Below, piece by piece: positions 22 through 37,256 of a stretch of DNA of 50,472 bases (position 1 is its first letter; every line of letters starts with the position of its first letter). The stretch is from Deltaproteobacteria bacterium (lineage in GTDB: Bacteria; Desulfobacterota; Desulfobulbia; Desulfobulbales; SURF-16): contig JAOZOY010000006.1 in the NCBI GenBank assembly GCA_029933005.1, forward strand, positions 3,182 through 53,653, in the 5' to 3' direction. A program made the translations under genes and the position numbers. The notes beneath the pieces are model-generated. The model made no database searches, was not told where the DNA came from, and saw nothing but the letters and a program-made list of their open reading frames with translations.

Positions 22-957
22 ATGTTTTCTTCCGAAACTGAAATTCCCGCCTTGCGCTCCCTGTCATGCCGGACACTCATGACAGCGGGTCTCAAAACCA
101 AACTCGACCGCCGCGGCAACTCTTTCTCTCTCTGCTCCATTATAAATGCCAAATCAGGCAGATGCGGTGAAAATTGCCGCTTCTGCGCCCAATCGTCCCA
201 TCACCGGACAAATTCCCCTGTTTACCCACTGAAAAATACCGAAGAAATCGTCGCGGATGCCAGGAAAGCAAAAAAAAACGGCGCTAATCATTTTTCCATC
301 GTCACCAGTGGCCGGGGACTACATGAGAAAAATCTCGACAGGGTCATTGAGACCGTTACAGCCATCCGGGATAAGGTGGGTATCAAAGTCTGCGCTTCCC
401 TGGGTATTCTCAATACTGAAGATTTCAAGAGACTGAAGAAAGCAGGTCTTGCCCGCTATCACCATAACCTGGAGAGCTCCAGGGAATTTTTCCCGAAAAT
501 CTGTTCATCCCACACCTTCCAGGATCGACTGGACACCATCAAGGCGGCCCGGCTGGCGGGGCTTGAAATCTGCAGCGGCGGCATTATCGGCCTGGGCGAG
601 TCCGAAGAGGACCGGGTTTCCCTGGCTCTGACCCTGAAAGAATATGACATTGACTCTGCCGTGATCAATATTCTCATTCCCCTGGCCGGGACTCCCATGG
701 CTGATCATACGCCCATGGCCGTGAATGATATACTCCGCACCATCGCTCTCTTTCGCCTCATTTTACCGGATATCCCTTTGCGCCTTGCTGCCGGCCGAGA
801 AACTGCGTTGGCTGACTTTTTAAGCTCGGCCTTTCTGGCCGGGGCTGACGGCATGATGATCGGCGGCTACCTCACCAGGCACGGCCGCTCTCCTGAAAAA
901 GATCTTGCTTTTATCCAAGACATCAAAAAAATATGGACATCTTCTCTTCCTGGTTAA
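22..957 (+). CDS. bioB: Biotin synthase (radical SAM)
   Basis: NAKSGRCGENCRFCAQS carries the radical SAM CxxxCxxC motif; YHHNLE, CSGGIIGLGE and RLAAGRE motifs; adjacent to bioF. Confidence 0.95.
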   Translation: MFSSETEIPALRSLSCRTLMTAGLKTKLDRRGNSFSLCSIINAKSGRCGENCRFCAQSSHHRTNSPVYPLKNTEEIVADARKAKKNGANHFSIVTSGRGLHEKNLDRVIETVTAIRDKVGIKVCASLGILNTEDFKRLKKAGLARYHHNLESSREFFPKICSSHTFQDRLDTIKAARLAGLEICSGGIIGLGESEEDRVSLALTLKEYDIDSAVINILIPLAGTPMADHTPMAVNDILRTIALFRLILPDIPLRLAAGRETALADFLSSAFLAGADGMMIGGYLTRHGRSPEKDLAFIQDIKKIWTSSLPG

Positions 958-2090
958 GCAAACAGAAACAGGCTGGCCAATTGCGAAGCTTGACACCGGT
1001 CATCCGTGCAACCGACGGCCGTATCAATCTTGCCGAAACCGGGAAAGCACTCCTTGATTTTTCTTCAAACGACTATCTGGCCCTTTCCCTTCATCCCGAA
1101 GTCATTGCCGAAAGTCACCGCTATCTTGACCAGGCCGGCTGTGGAGCCGGAGCCGCCAGATTGATGAGCGGTGATCTTAAGCTTTACCATAACCTCGAAG
1201 AAAAAATCGCCCGACTCAAGGGCAAGGAAGCAGCGCTTCTCTTCGGCAGCGGCTACATGACAAACAGCGGCGTCATTCCGGCCCTGGCCGGTCGGCATGA
1301 TGTCATTTTTTCCGACCGGCTCAACCATGCATCCATCTATGACGGCTGTCGCCTGGCCAGGGCAAAACTTCATCGCTTCCATCATAATGATTTGAATCAT
1401 CTGGAAAAGTTGCTGCGCCGTCACCGGGGAACCGGCCAGGCCCTGATCGTGGTGGAATCCATTTATTCCATGGATGGCGACTTCTGCCCCCTGCGGGAAC
1501 TGGCCGCATTGAAAAAACGGTATGACTGCCTGCTCATGGTGGATGAAGCTCATGCCACCGGACTCTATGGAGCAAACGGCTCCGGCCTCATAGAAGAAGA
1601 GGGGGTGACGGACCTGATTGATATCGCCATGGGCACATTCGGCAAGGCCCTGGGCAGCTATGGAGCCTATATTGCCGCCTCGCAGAACATGGTGGATTAT
1701 CTGATCAACCGGGCCAGAAGTTTCATTTACTCAACCGCACTGCCACCGGCCGTTATCGGCGCCTCCACGGCCGCAGTGGACATCATTCAAACAGAACCCA
1801 AACAGCGCCACGAACTGCACAAAAAGGCGCGTCTCTTTAAAAATACCCTGAAAAAAGAGGGTCTGGATAATCTCGGTCCTTCCCAGATTATCCCGGTTCT
1901 GGTGGGTGACAGCGATAGAGCCATGACCATGGCATCAAAGCTCAGGAAAGAGGGAATTTTTGCCACTGCCATCCGGCCTCCCACGGTTCCACCGGGAACG
2001 GCCCGTCTCCGCTTCTCCATCACGCTCCATTTAAGCAATGATAATATTCTCCGCTGCGCCCGGCTTCTTCTCCAAACCTTAAAGCTCTAG
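933..2090 (+). CDS. bioF: 8-amino-7-oxononanoate synthase
   Basis: FSSNDYL, DRLNHASI, ESIYSMDGD, DEAH, GTFGKALG (PLP lysine) and IRPPTVP motifs. Confidence 0.95.
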   Translation: MDIFSSWLSKQKQAGQLRSLTPVIRATDGRINLAETGKALLDFSSNDYLALSLHPEVIAESHRYLDQAGCGAGAARLMSGDLKLYHNLEEKIARLKGKEAALLFGSGYMTNSGVIPALAGRHDVIFSDRLNHASIYDGCRLARAKLHRFHHNDLNHLEKLLRRHRGTGQALIVVESIYSMDGDFCPLRELAALKKRYDCLLMVDEAHATGLYGANGSGLIEEEGVTDLIDIAMGTFGKALGSYGAYIAASQNMVDYLINRARSFIYSTALPPAVIGASTAAVDIIQTEPKQRHELHKKARLFKNTLKKEGLDNLGPSQIIPVLVGDSDRAMTMASKLRKEGIFATAIRPPTVPPGTARLRFSITLHLSNDNILRCARLLLQTLKL

Positions 2091-2818
2091 CCATCCTCCC
2101 GTACCCTTGCCAGAGTCAAAACCTGCACTTCCCGGACGCCTGCTTTCTTCAAAGTACGGCTGCATTCATTGACCGTGGTACCGGTGGTAAAGACATCATC
2201 AATTAGTATGATTTTCTTATCCTTCACCTTTTCCGGATCAATGACCCTGAAGGCATTGGTCATATTTTTACGTCGCTCATCTCCTCTGAGAGTGGTCTGT
2301 GGACTGGTATCCAGACAACGAATAAAGGTATCGCAGTCGATTTTCTCCTTCTGTTCCGGATAAAAAACCCTGGCCAGGAAAAGAGCCTGATTAAATCCAC
2401 GCTGGCGCAGACGCTTTGCATGCAGGGGAACAGGCATAATGATGTCAGGCTGAAACAGGTCAAGGCATGGATCCGCCTTTTTTTTAAGTTTGCCTAACGT
2501 TGCCAGGCATTCCTTCCTGCCCCCATATTTAAGAGCATGAATTGTTTTGGCGATAACATCGTTATAAATCAAAACAGCCCTTGCTCTACTGAAAAGCCAC
2601 TGTTTTTCTAAACAGACGGAACAAAAATGATTTTCTCCAGATATAAATGTTCTGCCGCAACAGGTACACAAAGGTTCCTTGACAAAATTCAGCTTTACAC
2701 AGCAATCGGCGCAAAATAAAATTGCTTTTTCATCAAGCTGTTTTGTACAGGAAAGACAGCGTGAAGGAAAGCAAAGTTCTCTCACACCCCGGAAAAAATT
2801 GATGGCCTTGTTTCTCAT
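2087..2818 (-). CDS. comF: ComF family protein (double zinc ribbon plus PRTase domain)
   Basis: N-terminal CxxC pairs, PVPLH...RGFNQA, and IDDVFTTGTT PRPP-binding loop. Confidence 0.9.
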   Translation of the reverse strand: MRNKAINFFRGVRELCFPSRCLSCTKQLDEKAILFCADCCVKLNFVKEPLCTCCGRTFISGENHFCSVCLEKQWLFSRARAVLIYNDVIAKTIHALKYGGRKECLATLGKLKKKADPCLDLFQPDIIMPVPLHAKRLRQRGFNQALFLARVFYPEQKEKIDCDTFIRCLDTSPQTTLRGDERRKNMTNAFRVIDPEKVKDKKIILIDDVFTTGTTVNECSRTLKKAGVREVQVLTLARVREDG

Positions 2819-3026
2819 TGCGTATTATCTTGAAAAGGTTGAGGAGTTCAAAGTTCAAGTGTTAAATCGACAGATCCGGACTTTCACTCTCGTGGGCATA
2901 GTTTTATTTTTTCCACAAAATCAACGAACTATTCAAAAAGAAAAGAAAAAATCTTGTGTTTTTCGTGGGGTTGGTGGCTGAAAAATAATATTCTGGTATC
3001 TTTGAACAAATTTAAAAGGAATCACC

Positions 3027-3188
3027 ATGAACCCAATTCTTATAGTATCACTTTCTTTGCTCATCGGTGTCATCACCTTTATCATCATTCTAAAAAAAGG
3101 CGGCAGCAACTGCACTCCCTGAATCATGATTTACGGATCCATAGGTATGGGTCTCCTGGTATATTATCTTTTCAATAAATTCTTTTAA
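3027..3188 (+). CDS. Putative 53-aa membrane selenoprotein with CxxU motif (UGA at 3120-3122 read as Sec)
   Basis: AAGGA RBS, then ATG at 3027; translation MNPILIVSLSLLIGVITFIIILKKGGSNCTP-U-IMIYGSIGMGLLVYYLFNKFF to TAA at 3186-3188; SECIS-like hairpin at 3135-3154. Confidence 0.65.
3135..3154 (+). promoter_or_regulatory. Putative bacterial SECIS element
   Basis: Stem GGAUCCAU/AUGGGUCU with AGGU loop beginning 21 nt after the UGA, the same offset as the selD hairpin. Confidence 0.6.
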
Positions 3189-3208
3189 TACATAATGTTA
3201 TCTTTAAA

Positions 3209-4333
3209 ATGAAAGTACATGGCGAACATTACCGGACAATATGGCCTGATGCCAAACATCCTGAAATCATCAAGATCATTGACCAGCGTCATCTTCCCCA
3301 TGAGTTTATCATTGAAAATCTCAAAACCGTTGCTGATTACGCCACAGCTATTTCTGAAATGCATGTTCGCGGGGCCGGACTCATCGGCGCAACAGCCGGT
3401 TTCGCCATATATTGCGCTGCTCTTTCCGCTCCGGAAAATAATTTTGACCCCTTTATAGATGAAGCGTCCCAAAAAATTCTAAAAACCAGGCCCACGGCTA
3501 AAAATCTGGCATGGGCTGTTGATCGTCAGCTTAAAACTATCAAAAATGAATCCAACCCGGCCGCTAAAAGAAAAAAAAGTTTCGAGGTTGCCTGTAAAAT
3601 AGCGGATGAGGACGCGAATTTTTGCAGACAAATCGGCGAGCATGGTCTGAATATTATCAAAAAAATAAGTGAAAAGAAAAACGGCGAACCGGTCAACATC
3701 CTGACCCACTGCAATGCCGGCTGGCTTGCCTTTGTTGATTATGGTTCAGCCACCGCGCCAATTTATGCGGCACATAACAGCAATATCAAAGTTCATGTCT
3801 GGGTTGATGAGACAAGGCCCTGGTTGCAGGGGGCGAAACTGACCTGCTGGGAACTGGATCAGGAAGGAGTGGAGCATACCTTGATCGCCGATAACACCGG
3901 AGGACATCTGATGCAGCATGGAATGGTCGATCTGGTGATTACCGGCACGGACCGCACCACCTCAACAGGTGATGTTGCCAATAAAATCGGCACTTATCTC
4001 AAGGCGTTGGCGGCCAGGGATAACTCTGTTCCCTTTTATGTCGCCCTGCCTTCCTCAACCTTTGACTGGCGGATAAGAGACGGTGTGAAAGAAATTCCCA
4101 TTGAACAGAGATCCGCCGATGAAATCAACTATATCACTGGTTTGATCCAAGATAACCGTCAGGCAACTATTAGTATCAGCCCACCCGAAACCAAGGCGGC
4201 AAATTATGCCTTTGACGTCACCCCGGCCCGGCTGATCACCGGTCTTATCACCGAAAGAGGGGTTAGCAAAGCCGACAGAAAGTCTATTCTTGAACTTTAT
4301 CCAGAACATAGAGAAGATATGACAGCATCATGA
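3209..4333 (+). CDS. mtnA: S-methyl-5-thioribose-1-phosphate isomerase
   Basis: MHVRGAGLIG, TRPTA, ILTHCNAG, DETRPWLQG, NKIGTY and FDVTP motifs. Confidence 0.95.
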   Translation: MKVHGEHYRTIWPDAKHPEIIKIIDQRHLPHEFIIENLKTVADYATAISEMHVRGAGLIGATAGFAIYCAALSAPENNFDPFIDEASQKILKTRPTAKNLAWAVDRQLKTIKNESNPAAKRKKSFEVACKIADEDANFCRQIGEHGLNIIKKISEKKNGEPVNILTHCNAGWLAFVDYGSATAPIYAAHNSNIKVHVWVDETRPWLQGAKLTCWELDQEGVEHTLIADNTGGHLMQHGMVDLVITGTDRTTSTGDVANKIGTYLKALAARDNSVPFYVALPSSTFDWRIRDGVKEIPIEQRSADEINYITGLIQDNRQATISISPPETKAANYAFDVTPARLITGLITERGVSKADRKSILELYPEHREDMTAS

Positions 4334-5877: not shown

Positions 5878-9440
<3,563 letters not shown>

Positions 9441-9559
9441 TTAGTTTTATTAGTTCAATTTGTTTTATTTGTTTAACTGGCCGGTAAAGCCGGTAAACAA
9501 ATTCAACCGACTAAACTAATCAAACCAATCAAACCAACTAAACTAATCCAACCAATAAT
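9441..9559. repeat. Degenerate 9-mer tandem/inverted repeat tract (AAACYAAYY)
   Basis: Left arm ttagttttattagttcaatttgttttatttgttt mirrors right arm aaactaatc-aaaccaatc-aaaccaact-aaactaatc-caaccaata. Confidence 0.75.
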
Positions 9560-12037
9560 ATGACAGAACAAGAACAGCAAGAATCACCAACTATTTCCAT
9601 AGAGAAGGAGTTGAAAAAATCTTATCTCGACTATGCAATGAGTGTTATTATCGGTCGAGCTCTGCCCGATGTAAGGGATGGTCTTAAGCCCGTGCATCGA
9701 CGGGCACTTTTTGCCATGCGGGAGCTTGGAAATTATTATAACCGGCCTCATTTGAAATCAGCGCGTATTGTTGGTGATGTTATTGGTAAATATCATCCCC
9801 ATGGTGATACGGCTGCCTATGATACCATTGTCCGAATGGCCCAGGATTTTTCAATGCGTTATCCTCTGGTGGATGGACAGGGCAACTTTGGCTCAGTTGA
9901 CGGTGACTCACCGGCTGCCATGCGGTACACCGAAGCCCGGATGACAAAAATAGATCAGGAGATCATTACCGATCTGGAAAAGGATACCGTCGATTTTGTC
10001 GCGACCTATGATAACAGCATGATGGAACCCGTAGTTTTTCCAAGTAAAATTCCAAATCTGCTGATAAATGGCTCATCAGGCATTGCCGTGGGCATGGCAA
10101 CCAACATTCCTCCCCATAATTTGAATGAGATCATGGATGGTCTCATTGCCATGATTAATGATTCCAATATCACGGTCCATCAGCTGATGGAACATGTGAG
10201 TGGACCGGATTTTCCCACAGGTGCCTACATCTGCGGCAGGGCCGGCATCAGGCAGGCCTATGAAACCGGACGGGGCAGCCTGCTTCTTCGGTCTCGATAC
10301 CATATTGAAACAAACAAAAAAAAGAGGGAATCGATTGTTATCACGGAGATTCCTTATCAGCAGAATAAAGCGGTTCTTGTTGAAAAAATAGCCCGGCTGG
10401 TTAAGGATAAAAAAATAAATTCTATTTCCGAAGTGCGGGACGAATCAGATCGCCATGGTATGCGTATTGTCCTGGATTTGAAAAAGGATGAGATGGCCGA
10501 AGTAGTCATCAACCAGCTTTACAAAATGACGCCTCTCCAGCGCAGTTTTGGAATCATCCTGCTCAGTATCGTTAATAACAGGCCGGAGGTACTGAACCTT
10601 AAGCAGATTTTTGAATGTTTTATCCAGCACCGAAAGTCAGTTATTTATCGCCGTACAGCATTTGATTTGAAAAAAGCGGAGGAACGGGCTCATATTCTGC
10701 AAGGCTTGAAAGTGGCCATTACCAATCTTGACGAGGTGGTTGCACTGATCAAGGCATCGGCCAATCCTAAAGAGGCGAGACAGGGGCTGATGAGTCGTTT
10801 TGATCTTTCAGAAATCCAGGCCCAGTCCATTCTGGAAATGCGACTCCAGAAATTAACCGGACTGGAAAGGGATAAGATCATCTCGGAACTGGACGAGCTG
10901 ATGAAACAGATTGAGATGTTTCAGCAGATTCTTGGGAATGAAGCCCTTGTTCTGGATATAATCAGGGACGAGTTTGTCGCCATTAAAGAGCAATATGGAG
11001 ATGATAGACTGACTGAGATTATCGAAGCCCCGGATGAAATTTTGCCTGAAGATATGATTCAGCGTGAAGACATGGTGGTCACGGTCACCCATGACGGATA
11101 TATCAAAAGAAATCCGGTCGATCTTTATCGTTCCCAGCGCAGGGGCGGCAAGGGGATCAAGGGAATTAAAACCGTGGAAGAAGATTTTGTCAGTCATCTC
11201 TACCTTGCCTCAACCCATGATACTTTTTTGTTTTTCACCAATTTAGGCAAGGTGTTCTGGCGCAAGGTTTATGAGATTCCTCAGGCCAGCCGTATTGCCC
11301 GGGGCAAGGCCATTGTCAATCTTCTTGATCTGGGACAGGATGAAAGAGTCGCAGCTATTTTACCGGTCAAATCTTTTGAAATTGAAGATGGCGAACAATG
11401 TTTTATCATGATGGTCACCAAATTGGGTGTGGTCAAAAAAACCGTGCTGCAAGAATTTAACAGGCCTATCCGCAGAGGTAAGATTGCTTTAAGAATCAGG
11501 GAAGGGGATGAAATTATTTCCGCCGCCCTGACCTCCGGGCAAAATAAAATTCTTTTGGTTTCTCATAACGGCATGGCCGTAAAATTTCAGGAAGACGATG
11601 TCAGGGCCATGGGCAGGACTGCCAGCGGGGTCAGGGGAATCAGGCTGGCTGAAGATGACCAGGTTGTCGGCGTGGTGGTGCTGGAAACCGATGAGTCAAT
11701 TCTTGTGGTGACCGAAAATGGTTTTGGCAAGAGAAGTCCGGAGATGGATTATCGGCTGACCAAGCGGGGCGGCAAGGGTGTCTTTGCCATTAAGACCAGC
11801 GAGCGCAACGGTAAGGTGGTTGGTGCGCTGCAGATTACCGATGAAGATGAGATCATGCTGATCACCAATGGCGGCAAGATTATTCGGATGAATATGGAGC
11901 ATGTCCGAGTGATTGGCAGGAATACTCAGGGCGTGAAACTTTTTGATCTTGGGACTGATGAAAAGGTGGTTGGTATGGGAATGGTGCCGGAGTCTTATAA
12001 AAAAGAAGATGGAGATGAAGGGAAAGAAGACGATTAA
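9560..12037 (+). CDS. gyrA: DNA gyrase subunit A
   Basis: [19 protein letters not shown] (catalytic Tyr), GyrA-box QRRGGKG and acidic C-terminal tail. Confidence 0.98.
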
Positions 12038-36203: not shown

Positions 36204-37256
36204 GTGAGTCAAATAAGCAAAGTAAAATTGACCAGTAGTGTCAAAGCTGCCGGTTGAGCCGCAAAAATCAGTCCGGGGGACCTGGACAATATCCTTTGCG
36301 GCCTTAAAATAGCAACAGACCCTAATCTTATTGTCGGCACCGGTGCTGCCGACGACGCCGGCGTCTACCGTTTAAACGATGAAATTGCCCTGATCCAGAC
36401 AGTTGATTTTTTTACTCCCATTGTCGATGATCCCTATCGTTTTGGCCAGATCACTGCTGCCAATGCTTTAAGTGATGTGTATGCCATGGGCGGCAGACCC
36501 CTCCTTGCCATGAATATTGTCGGCTTCCCCATCAAGGAAATGGATAATTCTATTCTTAAACAGATTCTGGCAGGCGGCATTAACAAGATCGAAGAGGCAG
36601 GTGCTTTACTGGTGGGCGGGCATAGTATCGAGGATCCAGAGGTGAAATACGGACTTGCGGTCACTGGTATTGTTCATCCTGACCGGGTCATGCTGAACTC
36701 CGGCGCCAGGACAGGGGACAAACTCCTTCTCACTAAGCCGGTGGGCACCGGTATCCTTTCAACTGCGATTAAAGGGGGGCTGGTCGGTGAAGATGTTGAA
36801 AAGATGATCACCCTGTGTATGGTCACCTTGAATCGGACGAGCTGTGAAGCCATGACCGCAGTGGGCGGGCATGGCTGTACTGATATCACGGGCTTCGGCC
36901 TTATCGGTCACCTCTATGAAATGGCCTGCGCCTCTTCGGTATCCATTCGTCTTTTTTCCGCTGATGTTCCTCTCCTACCCGGTGTCCTTGATTTTGCCGC
37001 CATTGGCATTATTCCGGAAGGAGCCCATAAAAACAGGCAGTTTTACGCAAAATTCGTGAAAAATTCCCTGGCTGAAATGGCTCCCCTGGAGATGGCGCTT
37101 TATGATCCCCAGACCTCCGGCGGGCTGCTAATTTCGGCAAGCGCGAAAAACGTTGACGAGATTGCGGCCAGATTGAATCAGGGAGATTATCCCTTGGACT
37201 GCGCCGTTATTGGCGAGGTGATTGAGGAGAGGGAAGACAAAATTTTTATTGAATGA
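36204..37256 (+). CDS. selD: Selenide, water dikinase SelD (selenoprotein; UGA at 36255-36257)
   Basis: GGAGA RBS and GTG start; KLTSSVKAAG-U-AAK, DDAGV, QTVDFFTP, SDVYAMGG, GGHS, TDITGFG and DPQTSGGLL motifs. Confidence 0.96.
36271..36287 (+). promoter_or_regulatory. SECIS element of selD
   Basis: GUCCGGG-GGA-CCUGGAC hairpin with loop 21 nt after the UGA. Confidence 0.75.

Follow-up and report, generated by a model that had tools for sequence, protein, structure and literature searches.

Near its upstream end, the window (the whole stretch of 50,472 nucleotides analysed here) holds a small gene on the plus strand, at positions 3027–3188, that appears to encode a selenoprotein. It consists of 53 codons and a TAA stop, with UGA as codon 32 when TGA is translated as U. 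A Shine-Dalgarno-like AAGGA (3016–3020, plus strand), read directly from the sequence, lies six nucleotides 5' of the ATG at 3027. From there, the frame runs to the in-frame TGA at 3120–3122 and continues over 21 further codons up to the TAA at 3186–3188. The ribosome-binding site, the start codon, and the readthrough frame had been pointed out in an earlier sequence-only reading of this DNA, and all of them were found where that reading had placed them. It had also remarked that the ORF track misses the gene; under genetic code table 11, the frame indeed yields only a 31-aa ORF that is closed at the TGA. The genome itself has a single copy of the readthrough product. Four DNA sequencing runs gave no reads over the gene, and a search for RNA runs that contain the locus found none. 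Within it, a hydrophobic helix 1 (residues 3–22; 3033–3092) is followed by K23 and K24 and then by a hairpin turn with a C-x-P-U motif (C29, T30, P31, U32; 3111–3122). Helix 2 (residues 33–49; 3123–3173) carries Y36, G40, and G42. The same part of the coding sequence contains a SECIS-type hairpin (3135–3154), with arms at 3135–3142 and 3147–3154 and the loop AGGU at 3143–3146; all of these features are on the plus strand.

The gene sits between a divergent gene for a ComF-like phosphoribosyltransferase with a double zinc ribbon (2087–2818, minus strand) and an IF-2B/MtnA-like gene (3209–4333, plus strand; Pfam PF01008, E 8.7e-65). Further upstream, a radical-SAM/BATS (BioB-like) gene overlaps a gene for a class I/II aminotransferase (22–2090, plus strand). 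On the other side, dnaN, gyrB, and gyrA follow in a row (5878–12037, plus strand), and clusters of this type are often located near the replication origin. The window also carries selD (36225–37148, plus strand; contig C12:39406–40329; TIGR00476, 369.4 bits) with an in-frame TGA of its own.

Homologues of the small gene are common among related genomes. In its own family, 34 of 40 genomes carry the gene at E ≤ 1e-5, and TGA occurs exactly once inside every match; in all 30 of the loci compared, the TGA occupied the same column and was followed by a stop 20–22 codons on. A profile built from these 30 own-family sequences was used to search the whole order and found the gene in 343 of the 401 genomes sampled (242/266 when only high-quality genomes are counted), and the carriers are spread over 71 of the 83 genera and 13 of the 17 families; each of the 150 matches listed contained one TGA. 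The profile did not find the gene in the families f8 (0/4), f12 (0/3), f11, and f14 (0/1 each) of this order, in which selB is present, and five non-carrier genomes held no diverged copy upstream of the MtnA-like gene. Outside the order, the phylum yielded one carrier among about 387 sampled genomes. A search centred on the order of that lone carrier then recovered the gene in 62 of 251 genomes and 22 of 58 genera, again with one TGA in each of the 66 matches listed. The genomes G879, G823, and G827 of this second order have two or three copies; elsewhere, the gene is single-copy. A DNA pattern with an explicit TGA, run over 185,579 species genomes, matched at least 119 stretches, and the whole gene was present at 80/80 among the matches listed.

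The named records point to Desulfobulbales as the order of the window. They include Desulfobulbus, Desulfocapsa, Desulforhopalus, Desulfopila, Desulfofustis, Desulfotalea, and Desulfoprunum. A distinct sub-type is found in Desulfonatronovibrio, Desulfonatronospira, Desulfohalobiaceae, and Desulfovibrionaceae, and the second carrier order is probably Desulfovibrionales. Altogether, 140 unique protein sequences of 45–64 aa were collected, most commonly of 53 aa (82 sequences). TGA stands in the column of the internal UGA in every homologue examined. A TAA or TAG at this position, which would have spoken against the proposal of a selenoprotein, did not occur among the 150 and 66 matches listed or in the 140 unique sequences.

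The stretch beyond the UGA evolves as coding sequence. In 75 gapless sequences, the pN/pS ratio after the UGA is 0.49 in frame versus 0.90 and 1.45 in the two other frames, and the entropy at codon positions 1, 2, and 3 is 1.0, 0.56, and 1.49 bits. The codon-like signal is kept outside the hairpin codons, with a pN/pS of 0.56. In nearly all homologues, a stop follows 20–24 codons after the UGA. The frame after the UGA, which had been expected to be conserved if it is translated, is thus conserved. An ATG lies within three codons after the UGA in 66/140 homologues, including the window gene (ATG 3126), so that re-initiation is conceivable in individual genes. The ATG at 3126 is a lineage feature. 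In 65 of the 140 homologues, the three codons after the UGA include no ATG, GTG, or TTG, and for this reason a separately started second peptide is not the general case. Many homologues use TGA as their true terminal stop, and TGA is therefore not reassigned in the carriers.

The hairpin of the window consists of eight pairs, two of which are G-U. Its folding energy is −13.2 kcal/mol versus a mean of −12.1 for shuffled sequences (z −0.42), and 62 of 200 shuffles are at least as stable. Judged by folding energy, a single hairpin of this kind is no better than chance, and it is the comparison across genomes that raises it above chance. When the fixed structure of the window was imposed on 75 sequences, 88.3% of the 600 cells were paired. 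The covariation score was 0.335 versus a mean of 0.199 for shuffles, none of which reached it in 500 trials, and sliding the 3' arm as a control gave a score of at most 0.13. The wobble-wobble pair between the codons of Gly37 and Gly42 shows this most directly, with AU in 25 sequences, CG in 20, UA in 7, UG in 6, GC in 1, GU in 1, and no pairing in 15 (n = 75). Pair 34:41 (window positions 3141 and 3148) is AU in 37 and GC in 15 of the 75 sequences. This pairing also couples residues: Ile39 goes with Met or Val at 41 (A-U), and Val or Ala at 39 goes with Ala or Thr at 41 (G-C).

Among the 140 homologues, all eight pairs are formed in 87 and seven in 17, the wobble-wobble position is unpaired in 30, and the loop is NGGN in 139. 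According to the section of PMC13188914 that deals with it, the bacterial SECIS has a G in the first two positions of a loop that lies 16–37 nt from the UGA. In the minimum-energy fold, this rule holds for 113/140 homologues versus 63/495 true TGA stops of the genome, and it fails for 27 of the 140. RNAalifold gave a consensus of only two pairs for the 75 sequences, and explicit pair counts were used instead. A search of positions 2900–3300 against Rfam at E ≤ 10 returned only noise, with no match to a bacterial SECIS model. On this comparative evidence, the hairpin behaves as a SECIS, and the conservation of a hairpin across homologues, which the sequence-only reading had left to be looked for, is borne out by the covariation and the NGGN loop.

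The placement of the hairpin agrees with that of other SECIS elements of the genome. The sequence-only reading described an 8-bp hairpin with an AGGU loop, starting 21 nt after the UGA. The hairpin is there; the offset holds for the loop, which starts at the 21st base after the UGA, and not for the stem, which starts at the 13th. The proposed agreement with selD stands: counted from the U of the UGA, both loops start at base 24, the loop of the selD SECIS being GGA. An FdhA-like gene with an in-frame TGA, located outside the window (contig C64:5303–6031, minus strand), was also used for comparison, and its hairpin has the loop GUC, starting at base 23 from the U of the UGA.

The genome possesses the machinery that such a gene needs, as had been foreseen. 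SelA (624 bits), SelB (384 bits), tRNA-Sec (73 bits), and SelD with one TGA inside its gene all score above the curated cut-offs. Of the 62 carriers in the second order, 60 were tested for selB and 58 have it; the two misses are genomes that are 81% and 89% complete. Non-carriers also have it: selB lies above the cut-off in 18/20 of those from the own order and is found at E ≤ 1e-60 in 20/20 of those from the second order, of which G799 falls just under the score cut-off. The selenocysteine trait is therefore necessary and does not explain the distribution of the gene.

Forms with cysteine at the place of selenocysteine are almost absent. A HMMER pass over 1.84 billion representative proteins, drawn from a collection of 15 billion, produced nine matches in total. 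Five of them are stumps of 29–44 aa that end just before the UGA. P0004 and P0007, gene calls from metagenomes, are Sec forms that show W both at the Sec codon and at the terminal TGA, and their contigs were evidently called with a code in which TGA is Trp. P0008 was rejected as an unrelated repeat protein. P0011, a 53-aa singleton from a metagenomic contig of 1397 bp, has CPAC, the second Cys of which falls in the Sec column; this single candidate aligns with the family from end to end (hhalign probability 97.5%, 53 columns). It carries Asn, Ala, and Ala in the columns of Y36, G40, and G42, which hints that part of the invariance of these residues is imposed by the RNA. A peptide pattern for Cys forms matched three stretches in the genome scan, none of which is a relative. 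In the phylum search, L082 (CIPC in a 41-aa frame), as well as L080, L081, and L083, proved to be chance matches that lack the hairpin architecture. As far as these sequence collections indicate, the family is almost obligately a Sec family, which is unusual.

The protein itself is short and strongly constrained at its turn. All 137 sequences compared share C29, U32, and Y36, and 135 of them have P31; conservation reaches at least 90% at M1, P31, G40, and G42. The conserved residues of helix 1 are A/S10, a small residue (G/A) at position 14, and F18. The motif occurs as CIPU (54), CTPU (42), CLPU (16), CVPU (10), and CMPU (7) in the 140 homologues and, more rarely, as CSPU (5), CPPU (4), CPSU (1), and CPAU (1). 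A two-helix hairpin of 53 residues had been predicted from the letters, and AlphaFold2, given the 137 sequences, arrived at the same fold, with helices at residues 3–28 and 31–52 and the CxPU motif at the turn (pLDDT 77.6, pTM 0.46). U32, Y36, and G40 would lie along one face of helix 2 because they are spaced i, i+4, i+8. The turn holds 2.25 Lys and Arg on average versus 0.72 at each terminus. By the positive-inside rule alone, the CxPU turn should be cytoplasmic and both termini periplasmic. Both the RNA hairpin and the protein constrain the S38-x-G40-x-G42 run, and the RNA may contribute more than the protein to keeping G40 and G42 unchanged. A Foldseek search against the PDB found nothing at E ≤ 0.001, and a sequence profile search of the PDB gave no hits at E ≤ 1.

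The sequence-only reading did not recognize the family, and no Pfam or NCBIfam model fits it. For the protein encoded in the window, Pfam gives no family and NCBIfam nothing beyond a hit below threshold, and no family model matches more than three of the 137 members, the matches in question being weak transmembrane look-alikes. In Table 1 of a review from May 2026 (PMC13188914), 119 families of prokaryotic selenoproteins are given, and every one of them is linked to a domain model. None of them is a two-helix protein of about 53 residues; families with only cd or PTHR identifiers were set apart by their names, which denote larger soluble domains. Other collections are BSepDB, which in the portion available compiles 111 previously reported selenoprotein families, and the preprint of Haft and Gwadz, which in the part consulted lists further ones. 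Full-text searches of the literature turned up no description of such a protein; the supplementary sequences of PMC12013277 and PMC13326102 lie outside this comparison.

The CxxU motif had been called a classic of redox selenoproteins, and it is indeed recurrent in Table 1 of PMC13188914. Among the families listed there, it can be compared with the SelW-like/Rdx (PF10262), AhpD-like, and GrdA proteins. In these proteins, as here, a Cys-x-x-Sec pair stands at the start of a helix, the UGA is decoded by means of a SECIS hairpin within the coding sequence (as it would be in the small gene), and a selenenylsulfide redox couple is presumed. However, they are soluble domains, whereas the small protein has two predicted membrane helices and matches none of their models. 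Unlike them, it is almost without Cys-containing relatives. Most characterized selenoproteins have a thioredoxin-like fold according to the relevant section of PMC13188914. A thioredoxin-fold CxxC/CxxU oxidoreductase was rejected here, as AlphaFold2 gives two helices with no strand and there is no Pfam match.

Membrane proteins offer further likenesses. SELENOK and SELENOS are short, membrane-anchored selenoproteins with Sec close to the membrane, possibly paired with a nearby Cys. The small protein resembles them in being short and membrane-anchored, with Sec near the membrane. However, they are single-pass eukaryotic proteins with Sec near the C-terminus in a disordered tail and a SECIS in the 3'UTR, and they have no sequence relation to the small protein. 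In the membrane oxidoreductases of the DsbB/VKOR type, a pair of the CxxC type sits at the membrane surface, where a transmembrane helix begins, and communicates with quinone. The position of the pair at the N-terminal end of such a helix is shared by the small protein, whose turn is predicted to be cytoplasmic, whereas DsbB/VKOR are much larger, with at least four helices and a periplasmic active site; no homology to them was detected. MerF and MerE are Mer-type small membrane metal carriers. Like the small protein, such carriers are helical, very short, and equipped with a pair of soft-ligand residues at the face of the membrane, but their motif lies within helix 1, whereas that of the small protein is at the turn before helix 2. 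SELENOS appears as a eukaryotic membrane selenoprotein in the portion of PMC3628699 that was available, and a C/SxxU selenoprotein form of MerT (PF02411) is listed in Table 1 of PMC13188914. Assignment to the Mer-type carriers (MerT/MerF/MerE) was rejected: there is no profile match and no mer operon, the neighbours being typA, NUDIX, MtnA-like, and ComF-like genes.

The surroundings of the gene vary. In the window, 20 nt without a terminator-like site separate the small gene from the MtnA-like gene. The co-transcription proposed for this pair is plausible, indeed probable, at this locus; a general link between the two genes does not hold, since 79/140 loci are near typA/bipA. The MtnA-like gene lies just downstream in 41 of the 140 loci. 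In the 79, typA/bipA is just upstream on the same strand, and in 47 of these, a convergent NUDIX gene also lies behind. Twenty loci show neither context and belong mostly to the second order, in which the copies mostly stand alone, or have short flanks. Redox, metal, or respiratory genes do not recur as neighbours across the 140 loci, and the typA/bipA, NUDIX, and MtnA-like neighbours give no pointer to function.

Taken on sequence evidence, the stretch 3027–3188 is very probably a genuine, previously uncatalogued selenoprotein gene that founds a new family. The ribosome would read the UGA at 3120–3122 as selenocysteine, and the stem-loop at 3135–3154 would recruit SelB carrying Sec-tRNA(Sec). 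One alternative is that the UGA is an ordinary stop that ends a single-helix peptide of 31 residues, with the downstream stretch serving as a separate micro-ORF or a regulatory RNA hairpin. This would be in line with the 31-aa ORF of table 11, the deposited products of 29–44 aa from gene callers, the unremarkable energy of the hairpin, and the ATG that lies two codons past the UGA in the window and within three codons in 66/140 homologues. Such a stop is nevertheless very unlikely. The downstream stretch is always in the frame of the upstream ORF, with a stop 20–24 codons on, and it evolves in a codon-like manner in that frame only. A start codon after the UGA is missing in 65/140 homologues, and in 79/140 loci there is no downstream gene on the same strand to regulate, as the gene follows typA, often with a convergent NUDIX gene behind. 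Furthermore, TGA is never swapped for TAA or TAG among the matches listed, and the lone candidate for a non-Sec relative, P0011, has a Cys codon in the UGA column.

Readthrough of the UGA by a standard amino acid (Trp, Cys, or Arg, by near-cognate decoding) is even less probable. The W at the UGA position of P0004 and P0007 might suggest it, but this W is no evidence for Trp because it also stands at the terminal TGA and comes from calls with an alternative code. This kind of decoding is also at odds with the many homologues in which the gene is itself terminated by a TGA, with selB in the carriers, with a covarying hairpin at SECIS distance, and with the CxxU context, a recurrent selenoprotein motif (PMC13188914, Table 1). 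Even when taken together, the ordinary stop and the non-Sec readthrough are improbable. A third possibility is a selenium-sensing leader peptide, functionless in itself, with which the supply of Sec-tRNA tunes the adjacent gene. The gap of 20 nt to the MtnA-like gene, with no terminator-like site, and the adjacency of the two in 41/140 loci could be read in this way. However, the helices, the CxPU turn, and Y36 are conserved as protein across two orders, and the gene ends a typA unit in 79/140 loci and is mostly alone in the second order, which makes a mere leader highly improbable as well.

As for the function of the predicted selenoprotein, its product would be a helical hairpin of 53 residues, made of helix 1, a Lys/Arg-rich turn that ends in Cys-x-Pro-Sec, and helix 2. 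Sec would be the first residue of helix 2, with the invariant Tyr one helical turn further. If the turn faces the cytoplasm, as the positive-inside rule suggests, it would put the Cys/Sec pair at the membrane interface, where the pair may cycle between the selenol/thiol and the selenenylsulfide. It could thus form a membrane-anchored redox centre that works on its own, acts as an oligomer, or belongs to a larger membrane complex as one of its small subunits. Such a selenol/thiol redox role at the membrane interface is the leading guess, a tentative one. A two-helix hairpin that presents a pair of soft ligands at the surface of the membrane would resemble carriers of the MerF/MerT type. By analogy with them, the Cys/Sec pair might instead bind or pass a soft metal or metalloid (Hg, Cu, Cd, As, Se, S) at the inner face of the membrane, with no redox cycle. 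A MerT-like C/SxxU family and several metal-binding CU or UxxU families (PMC13188914) are in keeping with this idea, and the essentially complete absence of replacement of Sec by Cys would fit a need for very high affinity. Nevertheless, there is no Pfam or NCBIfam match to Mer or metal-handling families, metal-resistance or transport genes are not found nearby, and a gene that is present almost throughout one order looks more like a housekeeping gene than one for resistance. Binding of a soft metal or chalcogen therefore seems rather unlikely; it ranks next after the redox role, and in either case, the protein may be a subunit of a larger complex.

The selenoprotein reading has consequences for how such genes are found. 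Gene callers stop at the UGA, and selenoprotein finders rely on Cys-containing homologues or on known families, according to the portion of PMC12013277 (deep-Sep) that was consulted. Families of this kind are therefore invisible to them, and the near-absence of Cys forms means that tools that need Cys homologues would miss this family in particular. UGA-interrupted micro-ORFs thus deserve systematic comparative screening. The family is by no means rare: carriers make up 405 of the 652 sampled genomes in two orders of sulfate reducers. Cultured strains are available among the carriers, for example Desulforhopalus singaporensis DSM 12130 and Desulfoprunum benzoelyticum DSM 28570, so that the predictions can be tested at the bench.

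A bolder and likewise tentative proposal is that the family constitutes a new type of Sec-obligate redox module, with a selenol/thiol centre buried at the interface between lipid and cytoplasm in which Cys is unable to substitute, in the sulfate- and sulfur-respiring Desulfobulbales and part of Desulfovibrionales. If this is true, the protein may serve to reduce lipid- or quinone-derived oxidants, or it may be a subunit, overlooked so far, that brings selenium into a membrane complex of respiration or electron transfer. The SECIS hairpin and the transmembrane helix would then co-evolve, being encoded by the same 20 bases. The family would be among the very few membrane-embedded bacterial selenoproteins, and one that is almost without a Cys form. 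In this respect, it is relevant to the long-standing question of the conditions under which nothing can take the place of selenium.
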